Below, piece by piece: positions 23,178-28,758 of a stretch of 64,000 bases of DNA. Within the stretch, counting starts at the first letter, position 1. Each line of letters starts with the position of its first letter. The stretch covers positions 416,001-480,000 of the forward strand of contig WJMO01000006.1 in assembly GCA_014727915.1 (NCBI GenBank), read 5' to 3'. The notes below the pieces were generated by a model. That model searched no databases. It was given only the letters and a program-made list of their open reading frames with translations, and had not been told where the DNA came from. A program made the translations under genes and the position numbers. This DNA comes from Candidatus Altiarchaeales archaeon (GTDB lineage Archaea; Altiarchaeota; Altiarchaeia; IMC4; SCGC-AAA252-I15).

Positions 23178-24716
23178 TCAACCGCCTCTAAAGCGGGCTA
23201 CGATGTGCTCTCTGCCCAGGCTGAGCATGAAAGCCGCAGCCTTGGGGCCCCGGTCATTTCCGATGAGCACCCTGTATATTGCCTTGAACAGTTTAGGCGG
23301 CTTAACACCGTTGGACCTGGCGACCTCGTATATTTTCTTGTGGAATTCCTCCGAGCTCCAATCACCATCCAGAAGACCCACAATCTCCTCCAGGCACTTT
23401 CGCTCGGAGTCAGATAGGCTGTCCCTCTCCCTACCAGCCTCTCCCTCCGAGTTCAACGTGAAGCGCAGATGATCGGGGCCGTATTTTTGAACCCAGTTGC
23501 CAGCCAACCTAACACGCCTATTAAGCCTTTCAACGTCGAATCCAGCGTATCCCATAGACTCCGCCTTGGAGGAGTACTCGCCTTCGAACGCCACTTGAGC
23601 TAGAACCGCGCATAGGGTGAAGGGAACATTAAGATACTTGGGTTCGCCCACTTGAGCGAGGTCGTACATCCTCGCCAGACCCATATCACCTTCCTGTCTC
23701 TTGTGGTATATCCGCTCGGCCTCGTCGTACTCGTCTGTGAGGTTGGATAGCAGGGATAGGTTAATGTCCCGCTGCTTCATGAGCCGCTTGTACATGAAGT
23801 ACTTAAGCACCTCCGGCTCGGCTATCACCAGCCAGTCAGCCAAGGTTATGACGTTACCCTTCGAGCTGGATATCTTCTCGCCGTTCAAGGTGAAGAACTC
23901 ATATACCAGGGGGACGGGGGGCGTCCAGTCGAACACCTCCTCCGATATTATCTTGCTGGTCTCATACGAGCCCCCTGCGGCAGCATGGTCTTTGCCGAAG
24001 GGTTCGCAGGTTACCTTGAACCGCCTCCACCGGGCAGCCCACTCAACCCTCCACGGCAGCTTACCCATGCCCTTGGAGGCGTCGCTGACGCCCTTGTGGC
24101 CGCATCCCTCGACTTCGCCGCCGGACACACCGGTTGAAACGCACTCGTAATCCGCCTTTAACCCATCGACTCCAAAGACTTTTGTGGTGCTTATCTTCCC
24201 GCATTTCTCGCATATGGGAGTCCAGGGCAGATAATCCTCTGGCAGGGGATCACGCCGGAATCTGTTCAATATATCCCTGATTTCAACCCTCTTCTCAAAC
24301 GCTGTTCTGATCTCCTCCACCAACTCCCCGTTCCTATAGAGGTCGGTGCCAGAGTGGACTTTAGGTTTTACGCCGAACTCTGACAAGTCCTGTATAAAGG
24401 GTTGGGCGAAGTGGTCGACGAAGTTACTGTGGCATCCGTCCAGGTCGGGGAGGTCCTTGACGGGGAACCCAAGATAATCATCTAATCCTTCCATTCCAGC
24501 GGGCACCTTCCGGAAGGGGTCGCTGTCGTCGCTTATCCAGATCAACTCCGCCTTGAGACCCGACTCCAACGCAGCCTTCCGTATGCAGTCCCCGCGGATG
24601 ACATCGCTTGCATTACCGATCTGAGGACGCCCAGATATGGAAGTGCCGGTGGCTATGACATGCTCCCCGCCCCGCTCTTCCAGCAGGCTGACAACATCGT
24701 CGCTCCAGTGCAACAT
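23178..24716 (-). CDS. lysS: Lysyl-tRNA synthetase, class I
   Basis: HW start, SISGRPQIGN, D..RKVP, C..CG, GKLPWRVEWAARW, EPFGKDH, KISSSKGN, GPK. Confidence 0.96.
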   Translation of the reverse strand: MLHWSDDVVSLLEERGGEHVIATGTSISGRPQIGNASDVIRGDCIRKAALESGLKAELIWISDDSDPFRKVPAGMEGLDDYLGFPVKDLPDLDGCHSNFVDHFAQPFIQDLSEFGVKPKVHSGTDLYRNGELVEEIRTAFEKRVEIRDILNRFRRDPLPEDYLPWTPICEKCGKISTTKVFGVDGLKADYECVSTGVSGGEVEGCGHKGVSDASKGMGKLPWRVEWAARWRRFKVTCEPFGKDHAAAGGSYETSKIISEEVFDWTPPVPLVYEFFTLNGEKISSSKGNVITLADWLVIAEPEVLKYFMYKRLMKQRDINLSLLSNLTDEYDEAERIYHKRQEGDMGLARMYDLAQVGEPKYLNVPFTLCAVLAQVAFEGEYSSKAESMGYAGFDVERLNRRVRLAGNWVQKYGPDHLRFTLNSEGEAGRERDSLSDSERKCLEEIVGLLDGDWSSEEFHKKIYEVARSNGVKPPKLFKAIYRVLIGNDRGPKAAAFMLSLGREHIVARFRGG

Positions 24717-24769
24717 CAGTATAGATAATAAAATGAAGCTATTAAAGGAATGCGTCGCTAATCATAAAC

Positions 24770-24829
24770 GGCGGTGTGATGACGCGAACAACCTCTGACA
24801 TATGATGAGTGATGGGCGACCTGACCGCC
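24770..24829 (+). ncRNA. Box C/D 2'-O-methylation guide sRNA (double guide)
   Basis: GGCGG stem, C box GTGATGA (24776-82), 12-nt guide CGCGAACAACCT, D' CTGA (24795-98), C' ATGATGA (24802-08), 12-nt guide GTGATGGGCGAC, D CTGA (24821-24), CCGCC stem; TATA-like ATTAAA about 25 nt upstream. Confidence 0.9.
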
Positions 24830-24932
24830 AAAAAAAGGTCACAAGCACTTCACAGGTGCGTCCCGTGAACGCGGGATGCGCCGTTTGTCGTCGGCAAACT
24901 CCGACGATGAGTGATGGGCGACCTGACCGCCA
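24804..24932 (+). repeat. 27-bp exact direct repeat of the sRNA 3' half
   Basis: GATGAGTGATGGGCGACCTGACCGCCA at 24804-24830 and 24906-24932. Confidence 0.92.
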
Positions 24933-24954
24933 TTTGAAGTTATGTTATGATAAG

Positions 24955-25833
24955 ATGAAGGACGAGATCAAGAGGAGCATCGATCATATGCTGGAGACGT
25001 CGCCGATCCGGAGGACCTTCTGGCACCAGGACGAGAAGGTGGAGGGCCTCAGGTATGGGATACAGCAGGGCGACGACGGAGCCGTGGTCGGAGACCTCGT
25101 GTACAACATGGAAGGCCCCTACCCCTTGAAAACCGGGCGGAAAACCGGTTTACTCCACAGTATAACCGATATCATCGGCATGGGCGCAAGGCCACTTTAC
25201 GCGTTCAATGCCATGCAGGTGGACAGCATAAAAGAGGCGGTTGAGGTTTCTGAGGACCTGAAGAAGCAGGCCAACGGAATCGGCGTTCCCATCATCGGCG
25301 GGAACACCCAGATGGAGAACGACCTGAAGCCGTGCATAAGCTTCGTCGTAGTTGGCAAGCTCATCCGGGAGCCATTGGCCGACTGCGGCTGCAGGATAGG
25401 GGACAAGATAGTCATGGTAGGCCATGTTATGGACGGCACCCTTGGGGAGAGGGTGTACCGGGCGAAGGTCAAGTACAAGACAATGCTCGAACTCTACGAT
25501 GAAGCGGTGGATATCCATGCGGTCAAGGACGCGAGCCGGGGAGGGTGGTTCGGGAACCTGGCTGAGATGCTGGTGAAGAGCAAGCGGGGATTCAAGATAA
25601 CGGCAGTGCCATACGCGAGCCCGACTAGGTACATGGGCACTTACATGATAAGCGTCCCCAAAAAGGAAGTGGACAAGGTGGTGTCAGTGGCAGCCAGGAA
25701 CAAGTGCCCATGCGTGGAAGTCGGGCAGGTGATGAAAGGACTTTACATAAAGCTCGGAGACGAGATGCTGGTAACTGAGGCTAGGATGAAGAAGCTGATA
25801 AGGGGAATGCCCTACCGGAAGCCGAAAAAATAG
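24955..25833 (+). CDS. AIR synthase-related (PurM/ThiL/HypE superfamily) protein
   Basis: GDDGAVV, DIIGMGARPL, IIGGNT, KDASRGGW.GNLAEM; start reassigned to ATG 24955 because the track's 5' extension overlaps the sRNA. Confidence 0.82.
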   Translation: MKDEIKRSIDHMLETSPIRRTFWHQDEKVEGLRYGIQQGDDGAVVGDLVYNMEGPYPLKTGRKTGLLHSITDIIGMGARPLYAFNAMQVDSIKEAVEVSEDLKKQANGIGVPIIGGNTQMENDLKPCISFVVVGKLIREPLADCGCRIGDKIVMVGHVMDGTLGERVYRAKVKYKTMLELYDEAVDIHAVKDASRGGWFGNLAEMLVKSKRGFKITAVPYASPTRYMGTYMISVPKKEVDKVVSVAARNKCPCVEVGQVMKGLYIKLGDEMLVTEARMKKLIRGMPYRKPKK

Positions 25834-28018: not shown

Positions 28019-28671
28019 TTTGCCGCCGGCCTAAACCGCGAGGCTACCGCCCCCCAGTTTCAAGTTCTTCCTGACCCCCGAAACGAAATGTGCCATCTAC
28101 GATGGCACAGAATGCATTATCTAACGAATAACTAATTACTTTTTCGGATTTTCAATCAGAAAATCATAAACAAAGGGAAACAACAAAAAGATCACCGCAG
28201 TTAAAATAACACCCAATAACTCCCAAAAACGTGGGTAAAACAGGTTTAATATCAATGGGGAAAAAATGAGATACACTATTCCAACGAATAATCTTCTGTT
28301 TTTATCAACAAAAACAATACCTCCACCAATTAATCCGCCGATATAGAAGCCCAAACGTTTTTGACTATTGTCTAACTGTTTTCCTATAAAATTAACCTAT
28401 GATGGTACTTCCATTAATTAGGGCTAATGATGAAAGAAAAAATACTGATAAAAGTATTATTAGAACCGGTGTGATATTTTTGAAATAAACAATAGTATTA
28501 GGAATTCCTAAAAAGAAAACAGCAGCAATCAGGGTTATTTCAAGATTATTAATTCTATCAGCAGTTGTATAGTCCTTGATTTTCTTCATTGTTGGTAGTG
28601 CGTTCGGTGGGGTCTTTAGACCCCACTGTACTCGCTGCGCGTGTAAACGGAGCGAGCCGTTTGCCGCCGGC
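28019..28671. mobile_element. Small AT-rich islet at the tRNA-Phe 3' end (putative integrative-element remnant)
   Basis: TTTGCCGCCGGC at 28019-28030 and 28660-28671 (tRNA 3' end); AT-rich interior; hairpins near both ends; no integrase present. Confidence 0.5.
28136..28589 (-). pseudogene. Hydrophobic membrane protein gene split by a frameshift/stop (or two small ORFs)
   Basis: ORF 28589-28392 (MKKIKDY...STIIG*) continues in a shifted frame (VNFIGKQLDNSQKRLGFYIGG...) to 28136. Confidence 0.45.
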
Positions 28672-28758
28672 GAGATTTGAACTCGCGACACCTCGGTTTC
28701 TACGCATTCGAGTTTTTGCGCTTCAGCCGAGTGCTCTCCCAGTCTGAGCTACAGCGGC
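28662..28758 (-). tRNA. tRNA-Phe(GAA) with an intron of about 23 nt at canonical position 37/38
   Basis: GCCGCTG acceptor stem paired with CGGCGGC-A; D arm GCTCAGACTGGGAGAGC; anticodon stem CTCGG/CCGAG with CT-GAA-G; intron CGCAAAAACTCGAATGCGTAGAA; T loop GTTCAAAT; CCA not encoded. Confidence 0.93.

Follow-up and report, generated by a model that had tools for sequence, protein, structure and literature searches.

The 60-nt stretch at 24770-24829 is best explained as a genuine double-guide box C/D sRNA that would direct methylation of U2552 in 23S rRNA, that carries a D guide fitting 16S C1402 and/or 23S C2558, and whose 3' half would have been duplicated because a 75-nt structured element inserted with a 27-bp target-site duplication. 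We give this explanation as a whole a probability of roughly 0.8. The host is an uncultivated Altiarchaeales archaeon, represented by a MAG of 1.81 Mb that is 90.6% complete; coordinates are positions in the window, the whole 64,000-nt stretch of DNA that was analysed. A preliminary description of this DNA had drawn the sRNA and proposed targets for both guides, but neither the 27-nt duplicate nor the insertion element had been noticed there.

The sRNA gene and its surroundings

Each part attributed to the sRNA in the preliminary description (perfect C, D', C', and D boxes, two 12-nt guides, and a 5-bp terminal stem) is found at 24770-24829. A single U lies between the 5' stem strand and the C box, and a CAU linker joins the D' box to the C' box. 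The gene, its parts, and its neighbours are as follows:

23178-24716, minus strand: class I lysyl-tRNA synthetase gene, the divergent upstream neighbour (tRNA-synt_1f, 370.2 bits)
24740-24747, plus strand: TATA-like A/T-rich box TATTAAAG, a putative promoter picked out by eye some 23-30 nt before the start of the sRNA
24770-24829, plus strand: box C/D sRNA, whole gene, 60 nt, recognised by its boxes, Rfam C/D matches, pattern scan, and conservation
24770-24774, plus strand: terminal stem 5' strand GGCGG, pairing with 24825-24829 (read from the sequence; covariation)
24776-24782, plus strand: C box GUGAUGA (read from the sequence)
24783-24794, plus strand: D' guide CGCGAACAACCU, 12 nt; N1-N11 pair with the genome's own 23S 2525-2535, N5 opposite U2552 (E. 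coli numbering)
24795-24798, plus strand: D' box CUGA (read from the sequence)
24802-24808, plus strand: C' box AUGAUGA (read from the sequence)
24809-24820, plus strand: D guide GUGAUGGGCGAC, 12 nt; N3-N12 pair with 16S (N5 = C1402), N2-N11 with 23S 2555-2564 (N5 = C2558)
24821-24824, plus strand: D box CUGA (read from the sequence)
24825-24829, plus strand: terminal stem 3' strand CCGCC (read from the sequence; covariation)
24955-25833, plus strand: AIR-synthase-related protein gene, probable true start 24955 (AIRS 43.9 bits, AIRS_C 46.5 bits)

The RUGAUGA C box, the CUGA D box, the terminal stem, the D' and C' boxes, and the spacers of exactly 12 nt are those of an archaeal box C/D sRNA, and the strict double-guide C/D pattern matches once in the 1.81-Mb genome and not at all in any of five shuffled genomes. 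The module made up of C box, U2552 guide, and D box recurs in 50 of the 61 genomes of the phylum, with no match to the reversed-pattern controls. In addition, the five positions of the terminal stem are paired in 38/38, 38/38, 38/38, 37/38, and 35/38 distinct homologues, with three to five pair types each, a covariation that contrasts with the invariant guides.

A search of the surroundings against Rfam (24500-25100, E up to 10) gives 16 matches, 15 of them to C/D families and one a chance match to a lncRNA. The best of these, Pyrococcus sR2 (RF01139), scores 32.4 bits (E 2.3e-5) and does not reach the gathering score of 42; at gathering threshold only a tRNA passes in the whole window. The sR2 RNA has the same C/D architecture and box spacing, but its guides are unrelated, and the sRNA is therefore not a member of the sR2 family. 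It could be argued from a best score below the family threshold that the boxes match only by chance, in DNA between two genes, and that no sRNA is made. However, the empty shuffled genomes, the recurrence of the module in the phylum, the covarying stem beside invariant guides, and the complete set of RNP proteins encoded by the genome make such a reading scarcely credible. By its sequence and conservation, 24770-24829 is confirmed as a genuine archaeal double-guide box C/D sRNA, ordinary in kind.

The preliminary description had named the C/D machinery and the stand-alone enzymes RlmE and RsmI as things to look for. The machinery is present, with fibrillarin (266 bits), Nop5 (220.6 bits), and L7Ae (86.9 bits) encoded in the same genome; by the known mechanism of the family, L7Ae, Nop5, and fibrillarin would assemble with the sRNA into a methylation sRNP. 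Neither enzyme was detected in this 90.6%-complete genome, where the FtsJ matches are a generic methyltransferase and RsmB/F. A clear RlmE was not found across the 61 genomes of the phylum either, the top FtsJ match being a 71-bit fragment in G007 and the rest scoring 38 bits or less.

The sRNA is covered by two mechanical ORFs, 24802-25833 and 24637-24798. In relatives, the orthologues of the AIR-synthase-related gene start 16-23 nt past the sRNA. Most likely, the start of this ORF at 24802 is a spurious extension through the sRNA, the element, and the repeat, and the real start lies at 24955, which agrees with the earlier statement that the sRNA is hidden under a spurious ORF extension. Similar A/T-rich boxes are seen by eye at a like distance upstream of the homologous sRNA loci of relatives.

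Guides and their predicted rRNA targets

The D' guide forms 11 contiguous bp (10 Watson-Crick and one G-U) with 2525-2535 of the genome's own 23S rRNA, and alignment to E. coli K-12 rRNA places its N5 (A) opposite U2552. The A-loop strand in this 23S is GGGUUGUUCGC, not AGGUUGUUCGC, the euryarchaeal sequence given in the preliminary description, and because of this the pair at N1 is a G-U. All 40 distinct homologues (40 of 40) share the core of the guide, GAACAACC (N2-N9), without a change, and 28 of 30 relatives have the very same target sequence in their 23S. Since both rRNA targets are nearly invariant, covariation between guide and target is unusable. Shuffled guides reach 10 contiguous bp over N5 in 130 and 140 of 3000 trials, or about 4.5% per guide. 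Both guides show the pairing of at least 9 bp with a Watson-Crick pair at N5 that is expected of C/D sRNAs (D', 11 bp with A-U2552; D, 10 bp with G-C1402 or G-C2558). A comparison of the guides with the genome's own rRNAs, another check suggested earlier, thus yields at least 10 bp at each named site, and the best tRNA match, among 35 tRNAs found by aragorn, has only 9 bp with two G-U pairs. No other box-preceded guide for the U2552, C1402, or C2558 sites was found in this genome.

In the predicted mechanism, the D' guide would bind helix 92 of the 23S along its 5' strand and its loop, and U2552 would be the fifth position from box D'. The pairing, the position of N5, the presence of the module in 50 of 61 genomes, and the failure to find RlmE all favour the U2552 assignment of the preliminary description, and most likely the sRNA makes Um2552 in a lineage where RlmE was not found. 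In the available portion of Dennis et al. (2015, PMC4644070), U2552 is a predicted target of double-guide C/D sRNAs in five archaeal species studied. The Altiarchaeales sRNA shares with the A-loop sRNAs described there the box order, the 12-nt guides, the N+5 rule, the L7Ae/Nop5/fibrillarin set, and U2552 itself. It differs from them, as far as that portion goes, in belonging to a new lineage (Altiarchaeota), in having a partner guide that fits two rRNA sites, in guide modules that occupy swapped slots in some relatives (6 of the 36 sequences carrying xUGAUGGGCGAx), and in being apparently one of only two canonical C/D sRNA genes that pattern scans find in the 1.8-Mb genome.

The D guide matches two places equally well. 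With the genome's own 16S 1359-1368 (E. coli 1400-1409), it forms nine Watson-Crick pairs and one G-U with N5 at C1402, and with 23S 2532-2541 (E. coli 2555-2564), again nine Watson-Crick pairs and one G-U with N5 at C2558. The second duplex, which adjoins and overlaps the D' target, is the pairing just 3' of the A loop that the preliminary description had already mentioned as an alternative.

Conservation of the guide points to the 23S register. Of 40 distinct sRNA sequences, 36 carry xUGAUGGGCGAx, in which N2-N11 are invariant and N1 and N12 vary, and this invariant window (36/36 distinct sequences in the order Altiarchaeales) is exactly the part complementary to 23S UCGCCCAUUA; the conserved core of the D' guide likewise starts at N2. 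Furthermore, the invariant N2 (A) and N8 (U) form Watson-Crick pairs only in this register; in G026, N8 faces G instead of A (U-G for U-A, the guide unchanged), and in G034, N10 faces C instead of U. In the 16S register, N2 is unpaired, facing C1399 in 36/36 sequences, and N8 wobbles with G1405, while the tenth pair depends on the variable N12. The G needed there occurs in a minority of sequences, and consequently the 16S duplex is 9 bp including one G-U in most genomes. By reading, N12 pairs with 16S position 1409 in about 9 of 24 genomes, with no covariation signal.

These features, together with the statement in the accessible part of Dennis et al. (PMC4644070) that archaeal double guides usually hit sites less than 100 nt apart, are consistent with a D guide whose only target is 23S C2558, in the 3' strand of helix 92. 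The two guides would then share one 18-nt stretch of 23S, where they would direct methylation, help the A-loop hairpin to fold as a chaperone, or do both. However, the D and D' duplexes overlap by 4 nt (2555-2558), so that the two guides could not hold one 23S molecule simultaneously. N10 also stays G, a wobble in the 23S register, in 36/36 sequences, though A would pair better. In addition, no report of 2'-O-methylation at C2558 was found in the literature consulted, where the portion of Dennis et al. seen mentions U2552 and C2556, and the sister family f8 has a guide for 16S. On balance, an exclusive role at C2558 seems possible but doubtful.

The evidence from family f8 bears on the opposite alternative, a guide for 16S C1402 only, with one site per subunit and a 23S match that arises only because 16S CGCCCGUCA and 23S CGCCCAUUA resemble each other. 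The f8 guide AACGGGCGGU (GA/UAACGGGCGGU) is position-for-position homologous, in the same register, and forms 9 Watson-Crick bp with f8's own 16S with N5 at C1402 but only 6 bp with 23S. The 10-bp pairing in the present genome places N5 at C1402 as well, the invariant G at N10 forms a G-C pair with C1407 but only a G-U with 23S, and RsmI was not found. Outside bacteria, Cm1402 has been detected by RiboMeth-seq in Nanoarchaeum equitans, where the passage available gives no guide for it (PMC5389701), and in plants a C/D snoRNP guides the equivalent modification, 18S-Cm1645 (PMC11542601, as far as the available text goes). C1402 ribose methylation is the theme shared with these two cases in the excerpts cited, but the Altiarchaeales guide has only 9-10 bp, wobble included, and an equally good 23S alternative. 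Against an exclusive C1402 guide stand the invariance of the mispaired N2, the invariant U at N8, where f8 has C, and the rarity of G at N12. We therefore regard this alternative, too, with some scepticism.

Judged from the f8 homologue, the D guide of the Altiarchaeales probably descends from a 16S C1402 guide; it forms 9-10 bp with 16S 1400-1409 and also 10 bp with 23S 2555-2564. At least one of C1402 and C2558 is probably used, the choice between them being ambiguous, and both may be; a wobble-degenerate guide serving the two sites may be what is seen. The earlier assignment of the D guide to C1402 thus gains from the 10-bp pairing, the f8 homologue, and the failure to find RsmI, but C1402 is not singled out, and the invariant window fits C2558. 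Likewise, of the proposal that one sRNA serves both subunits, the 23S half (U2552) stands and the 16S half is possible, with C2558 as an equal alternative. The guide offers a clean case in which to ask whether two rRNAs can share one guide, or how guides drift towards look-alike targets.

Elsewhere, the same nucleotides are handled by RlmE/RrmJ and RsmI in E. coli, by an RlmE homologue in haloarchaea, and by Spb1/snR52 in yeast, according to the portion of PMC11542601 available. The stand-alone Um2552 and Cm1402 enzymes have the same predicted substrates, two nucleotides that are conserved in the A loop and at the decoding site, but the specificity of the Altiarchaeales sRNA would come from an RNA guide. 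The best matches of the two sRNAs found in this genome are U2552, C2498, and possibly C1402, positions for which E. coli has dedicated methylation enzymes. This mesophilic archaeal phylum with small genomes keeps the C/D machinery with very few guides (two here, by pattern scans), and such a repertoire fits the view that these ribose methylations are an indispensable core for which RNA guide and protein enzyme are interchangeable.

The duplicated 3' half and a probable insertion

Directly behind the sRNA lies a structured segment, read as an insertion, that is bracketed by two copies of the sRNA 3' half:

24804-24830, plus strand: direct repeat, left copy, 27 nt; the sRNA 3' half plus one base, 27/27 identical to 24906-24932
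24831-24905, plus strand: insertion, 75 nt; A-rich/variable lead (24831-24854), hairpin, and pseudoknot motif
24855-24882, plus strand: element hairpin, 12-13 bp, from the folding of element plus repeat
24884-24905, plus strand: conserved 22-nt 3' end of the element, UUUGUCGUCGGCAAACUCCGAC; helices 1-4/12-15 and 7-11/18-22 are interleaved, forming an H-type pseudoknot
24906-24932, plus strand: direct repeat, right copy, 27 nt; orphan C'-box end, D guide, D box, and 3' stem, adjoining the last base of the element

The folding energy of element and repeat together is -49.2 kcal/mol (z = -5.0), a stability that none of 200 shuffles attains. The right copy has neither a C box nor a 5' stem strand, and it ends 22 nt before the ATG of the AIR-synthase-related gene, a distance that is 16-23 nt in G031, G023, and G010. 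In most relatives, the homologous sRNA locus has no insert and a single copy of the sRNA half. Taken together, these results suggest that the 75-nt element would have inserted at the end of the sRNA gene with a 27-bp target-site duplication. The 3' half would thus have been duplicated 102 nt downstream, with the left copy keeping the sRNA intact and the right copy left as an orphan fragment. In G015, an element is present at the same sRNA position with the same left repeat boundary; consequently, the insertion may be an old one that other genomes have lost, and not a recent event.

Another hypothesis is that the right copy and the structured RNA preceding it constitute a second functional gene, either a half-mer guide RNA or a tandem duplication. 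The perfect identity of the copy and the same arrangement in G015 would fit this, as would the fact that the element hairpin can be extended here by pairing of UUGUC with GAUGA of the repeat. However, a copy that lacks the C box and the 5' stem strand cannot form a C/D kink-turn, and in G015 the copy is mismatched at 2 of its 27 positions, one of which falls within the guide that is invariant elsewhere. Moreover, the repeats around copies of the element at other loci are unrelated in sequence, such as tRNA ends, the end of an ORF, and other elements, and relatives have empty sites. A second gene is consequently very unlikely, and insertion with target-site duplication is the preferred account.

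The element family in the phylum

The 3'-end motif of the element gives 88 matches in 21 of the 61 genomes and none in reversed controls, and its pseudoknot helices covary (66 instances). Copy number is high in G036, G019, and G038, whereas other genomes have no copy. Duplications flanking the copies measure 13-85 nt. Exact flanking repeats of at least 12 nt accompany 38 of 61 motif instances but only 13 of 1220 random positions, and at the site of a second G000 copy, G001 and G003 lack the element and have the 71-nt repeat only once. Within the model, insertion would occur at the ends of small-RNA, tRNA, and protein genes or close to them, as well as at the ends of the element's own copies, and the 13-85 nt target duplications would rebuild the end of the struck gene.

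Known prokaryotic transposons make duplications far shorter than these. The pattern of insertion is by analogy one otherwise typical of RNA-mediated (SINE-like) retroposition, which to our knowledge is not known in archaea. As in SINE-type retroposons, the 3' end of the element is precisely conserved, its 5' part varies or is shortened, the target duplications differ in length, and insertions are found nested. Like SINEs and prokaryotic MITEs, it is also small, non-coding, multi-copy, and patchy among relatives. The structural features of SINE-like elements (3' end, 5' end, duplications) are thus present, but a host reverse transcriptase was mostly not found: RVT_1 was missed in G000, G036, G019, G015, or G038 and is present in G021 only, which, in six incomplete MAGs, is weak evidence. 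A SINE-like mechanism is therefore unsupported.

No mobilising enzyme was identified. When ORFs within 2.5 kb of the motif were compared all against all, only orthologous housekeeping genes recur; viral contigs contain no motif match. Rfam passes only a tRNA in the element array of G036, and no description of the element was found in the literature.

Several known classes were considered and rejected. Of the four inverted repeats reported in 24400-25300, none brackets 24831-24905, and duplications of 13-85 nt are neither fixed nor short, which speaks against a MITE; in the part of PMC11602168 available, Ca. Altiarchaeum hamiconexum has the highest reported archaeal cMITE density, 146 per Mb. 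The internal hairpin with GAG...CGAA recalls a hammerhead ribozyme, but Hammerhead_3, whose gathering score is 48.5, reaches no more than 20.8 and 17.3 bits in the G036 array, and by eye the CUGA turn is missing. An IS200/IS605 TnpB guide (omega-RNA) was dismissed, as PF07282 was not found in G000 and there is no recurrent neighbouring protein, and group II intron domain V/VI because the hairpin lacks the 2-nt bulge, Rfam gives no match, and RT was not found. A solitary CRISPR-like repeat is at odds with the spacing and with an upstream hairpin that is structured and variable, and repeats that differ at each site do not fit an integrase att site.

We tentatively raise the possibility, itself rather unlikely, that a new class of archaeal mobile element left the duplicated sRNA half behind as its footprint. 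Such an element would be about 60-135 nt long, non-coding, and RNA-like, with an H-type pseudoknot end and long, variable duplications (13-85 nt) that rebuild the ends of the genes it hits. If confirmed, this would be a new type of small mobile element that lands in essential RNA genes without harm by regenerating their ends, and it may outweigh the sRNA in importance. The lead of the present copy, 24831-24854, matches 16 nt of a coding region (C12:462953-462968), apparently by chance.

A conserved box C/D gene and its surroundings

The stretch at 24770-24829 is a conserved C/D sRNA gene of a well-known kind, and it shares its DNA with two mechanically called reading frames:

24770-24829, plus strand: double-guide box C/D sRNA, GGCGG-U-GUGAUGA-CGCGAACAACCU-CUGA-CAU-AUGAUGA-GUGAUGGGCGAC-CUGA-CCGCC
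24637-24798: mechanical ORF over the sRNA gene
24802-25833: mechanical ORF over the sRNA gene, an upstream extension of the AIR-synthase-related gene (AIRS and AIRS_C domains)

As the preliminary description stated, the C, D', C' and D boxes are all perfect, the two spacers measure 12 nt each, and the terminal stem has 5 bp. When this architecture was searched for with a strict regular expression, the 1,808,974-base genome gave a single match and five block-shuffled copies gave none. Rfam gives no family above threshold at the locus; at the E-value threshold, C/D families account for 15 of the 16 matches within 24500-25100, and the top match at the sRNA is Pyrococcus sR2 (32.4 bits, E 2.3e-5; gathering score 42). 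The ORF covering the gene from 24802 was likewise correctly called spurious there, being the AIR-synthase-related gene lengthened at its 5' end. In relatives, the orthologues of that gene begin 16-23 nt past the sRNA, a start equivalent to the ATG at 24955. The upstream neighbour, on the opposite strand, encodes a class I LysRS.

DNA similarity finds the sRNA stretch in 13 relatives (E <=3.4e-13), and a regular expression applied to fetched homologous loci yielded 40 distinct sRNA sequences. Along the terminal stem, the five positions are paired in 38, 38, 38, 37 and 35 of 38 distinct sequences, and three to five kinds of pair occur at each. By this comparison, the boxes and guides are under selection, whereas the terminal stem needs only to pair. 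Furthermore, in 6 of 36 Altiarchaeales-type sequences (loci L021, L024, L026, L027, L154 and L155) the two box-guide-box modules have exchanged slots, so that the D slot holds the U2552 guide; each guide is therefore kept as a unit regardless of slot. In family f9 (L156-L165) and in extra sRNAs of the genomes G014 and G015, including the second sRNA of G015 (L166, L168), the U2552 guide is partnered by a different guide, CCUUAUGAGC. In many of these sRNAs the D' and C' boxes are separated by a long hairpin, which starts CAGCC...GCUGGCGGAAAA and resembles the 5' hairpin found in the insertion elements treated below.

The source genome (13 contigs, 90.6% complete) encodes all three proteins of the C/D machinery that were sought, namely fibrillarin (266 bits), Nop5 (220.6 bits) and L7Ae (86.9 bits). 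A check for the stand-alone enzyme RlmE with the FtsJ model found two low-scoring proteins of other kinds in this incomplete genome (27.7 and 23 bits); Pfam assigns one to a generic class I methyltransferase and the other to an RsmB/F m5C enzyme. Across the 61 genomes of the phylum, FtsJ scores highest (71 bits) on a fragment that lies at a contig end in G007; the remaining matches are partial and score 38.2 bits or less. RsmI (TIGR00096) was not found in the source genome, and all of these negatives come from incomplete genomes.

Targets of the two guides

Guides were paired with the genome's own 16S and 23S rRNAs, numbered by alignment to E. coli K-12 rrsH and rrlH; guide positions are counted from box D' or D, and N5 is opposite the predicted methylation site. 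N1-N11 of the D' guide (24783-24794) pair with 23S GGGUUGUUCGC through 10 Watson-Crick pairs and one G-U (at N1), with N5 opposite U2529 of the organism's own 23S, which is E. coli U2552. The U2552 target first proposed from the sequence is thus borne out by an 11-bp pairing with the native rRNA, and it is solid as a prediction. The pattern UGAUGA-N-GCGAACAACC-N-CUGA (up to 2 mismatches) occurs in 50 of the 61 phylum genomes and in 12 of the 13 high-quality ones, while the reversed pattern occurs in none. N2-N9 of this guide, GAACAACC, are constant in all 40 distinct sRNA sequences, of which 27 have GC at N10-N11 and the other 13 have AU, AC or similar. Of 30 relatives, 28 have the identical 23S target, GGGUUGUUCGCCCAUUAA.

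The D guide (24809-24820) has two matches of equal length. N3-N12 pair with 16S CGCCCGUCAC and N2-N11 with 23S UCGCCCAUUA, in each case through nine Watson-Crick pairs and one G-U; N5 falls on C1361 of the native 16S (C1402) or on C2535 of the native 23S (C2558). It had been postulated that this guide is aimed at C1402, with a pairing near the A loop as the alternative. The 10-bp fit and the position of N5 on C1402 stand, but the alternative pairing also reaches 10 bp in the native 23S, and so C2558 competes.

In all 36 distinct sequences from the order Altiarchaeales the guide reads xUGAUGGGCGAx, with N2-N11 constant and N1 and N12 freely variable. This constant window is exactly the one complementary to the 23S, and the conserved core of the D' guide also starts at N2. 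In addition, A at N2 pairs with U2555 but stands opposite C1399 in the 16S, and U at N8 forms a Watson-Crick pair with A2561 but only a wobble with G1405. These features favour the 23S site. Its use would make the D and D' duplexes overlap by 4 nt and hence exclude each other on one molecule. On the other side, G at N10 is Watson-Crick to C1407 and a mere wobble to U2563, and A is never seen at N10. Furthermore, the guide of family f8 (G041-G044), GA/UAACGGGCGGU, lies in the same register with GGGCG at N7-N3; its N1-N9 are all Watson-Crick with ACCGCCCGU in f8's own 16S, and it reaches just 6 bp at the 23S site in a hand alignment. N12 does not mirror whether a relative has C or A at 16S 1409; by our own reading, it pairs in about 9 of 24 genomes. 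Service at C1402 only has a probability of roughly 0.3, as do service at C2558 only and service at both sites. That neither site is served is improbable. In a chance test, shuffled guides formed an uninterrupted 10-bp pairing somewhere in the rRNAs, covering N5 and with no more than one G-U, in 130 and 140 of 3000 trials.

Taken together, these comparisons make it plausible that C1402 is the target by descent and that in this order the adjacent 23S site competes. In this model, the D guide would be a C1402 guide by ancestry that, within the Altiarchaeales, shifted to a sequence fitting both look-alike sites, the 23S fit being the tighter. Among 35 predicted tRNAs, the best pairing with the guides was 9 bp with two G-U. 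No second guide for the rRNA sites of this sRNA (a 12-mer with a C-type box before and a D-type box after) was found in the genome.

A relaxed scan (C box, D box, terminal stem of at least 4 bp, imperfect internal boxes allowed) gave 2 genes in the genome and 0 in five shuffles, although such a pattern-based scan may miss degenerate sRNAs. The additional gene is:

Contig C6 near 132050 (L185 ~1474-1530), minus strand: second C/D sRNA, GUGAUGA-CAGCGAAGUAGU-CCGA-CUCUG-UGACGA-CAAGGGUAGCUG-CUGA

It is present, at 0-1 mismatch, in 10 of the 61 genomes. Its D' guide forms 12 bp (11 Watson-Crick and one G-U) with positions 2471-2482 of the native 23S, placing N5 on C2498; its D guide fits best near E. 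coli 1076 (10 bp) or near 2438 (8 bp). The D' duplex takes in a lineage-specific C at the equivalent of E. coli A2503, a position in the exit tunnel that is usually A. This position (2480 in the native 23S) is C in 21 of 21 readable Altiarchaeota 23S sequences (L093 and 20 loci among L094-L122). A passage in PMC11542601 gives the ribose methylations of E. coli rRNA as four, Cm1402, Gm2251, Cm2498 and Um2552; two, possibly three, of these match the best targets of the two Altiarchaeales sRNAs.

A small insertion element beside the sRNA

Just outside 24770-24829, a small, structured and non-coding insertion element has left its footprint on the sRNA gene:

24804-24830: left direct repeat
24831-24905: 75-nt insert, comprising a variable lead, a 12-13-bp hairpin (24855-24882) and the 22-nt motif UUUGUCGUCGGCAAACUCCGAC (24884-24905)
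24906-24932: right direct repeat

The repeats are identical at 27 of 27 positions, the last base of the motif adjoins the right repeat, and the right repeat stands at the ancestral distance from the AIRS gene. Most relatives have the sRNA without the duplicate. In G015, however, a type-1 element occupies the equivalent position; it shares the boundary of the left repeat and shows 2 mismatches in the right one. For this reason, the insertion could be an old one that recombination between the repeats has removed repeatedly. By eye, a related type of element, whose 3' motif differs (AUUUGRUCAACCUUU...AAAGGUUG), lies right after the same sRNA in G011, G003 and G008 (L008, L026, L167), and a partial copy of the sRNA again comes next.

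With up to 1 mismatch, the motif has 88 matches in 21 of the 61 phylum genomes (1 to 27 per genome, with additional copies in the source genome), and reversed controls have 0. A collection of species-representative genomes gave 49 matching stretches, all in archaeal records except one in a Cloacimonadota MAG, and viral contigs gave 0. The Cloacimonadota match (L076 5610-5631) is single, with no hairpin or repeat nearby, and looks like chance or mis-binning.

Among 66 distinct instances, motif positions 3/13 are A-U in 32, U-A in 30 and unpaired in 4, and positions 7/22 are G-C in 42, C-G in 18, other pairs in 2 and unpaired in 4. This covariation does not stem from the search pattern, which admitted every combination. 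Because helices 1-4/12-15 and 7-11/18-22 interleave, the fold is an H-type pseudoknot; judged by eye, the G-U pairs of the hairpins point to the plus strand as the folded one. The 44 nt upstream of the motif have a median z of -3.0 against shuffles (z < -2 in 51/66), and a GAG...CGAA-type internal motif occurs in 45/66. Full-length units in G036 and G038 (121-136 nt, 14 distinct sequences) have three more hairpins ahead of the pseudoknot, the first ~11 nt being missing in some copies. Rfam has no family for the element (Hammerhead_3 reaches 20.8 bits, its gathering score being 48.5).

Flanking repeats and possible origin of the element

Loci with flanking repeats include the following:

24831-24932 of the window
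L190 (contig C3 of the source genome, 498200-499300)
L191, L192 and L193
L033, 2950-3650

An exact repeat of at least 12 nt, after the motif and upstream of the element, is present in 38 of 61 instances (10 of the 38 being unit-to-unit repeats within G036 tandem arrays, not host sequence), with offset 0 in 25 of the 38; the same test at random positions of the same DNA succeeded in 13 of 1220. Flanking repeats are 13 to 85 nt long. Nine overlap predicted tRNAs, and in seven of these the inner end is within 4 nt of the tRNA 5' or 3' end (+25 and +44 in the other two). Further sources are an ORF 3' end through the stop codon, the 3' parts of C/D sRNAs (in the window, in G015 and in the second sRNA in G021), and the 3' end of another element copy, which gives nested insertions. 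For the source-genome copy at C3:498756, G001 and G003 have the orthologous ORF end once and without the element, that is, an empty site. The first base of this insert (L190 449-650) completes the TGA stop of the ORF it struck; a G follows the right repeat, and without the insert the frame would continue for ~11 codons.

Target-primed or template-switching retroposition produces the same set of features: a 3' end that is precise and a 5' part that varies, duplications that are long and differ in length, copies nested in one another, and insertion at the ends of RNA genes. Such an origin is offered as an analogy, because there is no polymerase candidate: RVT_1 reverse transcriptase was not found in G000 (the source genome), G036, G019, G015 or G038, and G021 has three. 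No recurrent protein was found next to the motif, nor TnpB in the source genome, and the insert is not enclosed by any of the four inverted repeats that 24400-25300 was reported to contain. The literature on Altiarchaeota repeats and archaeal non-autonomous elements yielded no published description of such an element, although the supplements of PMC11602168 may list it; a passage in that paper credits Ca. Altiarchaeum hamiconexum with the highest conserved-MITE density among archaea.

Elsewhere in the window, a tRNA gene at 28662-28758 on the minus strand (Rfam 54 bits) probably carries an intron, since it spans 97 nt against a 71-position model.
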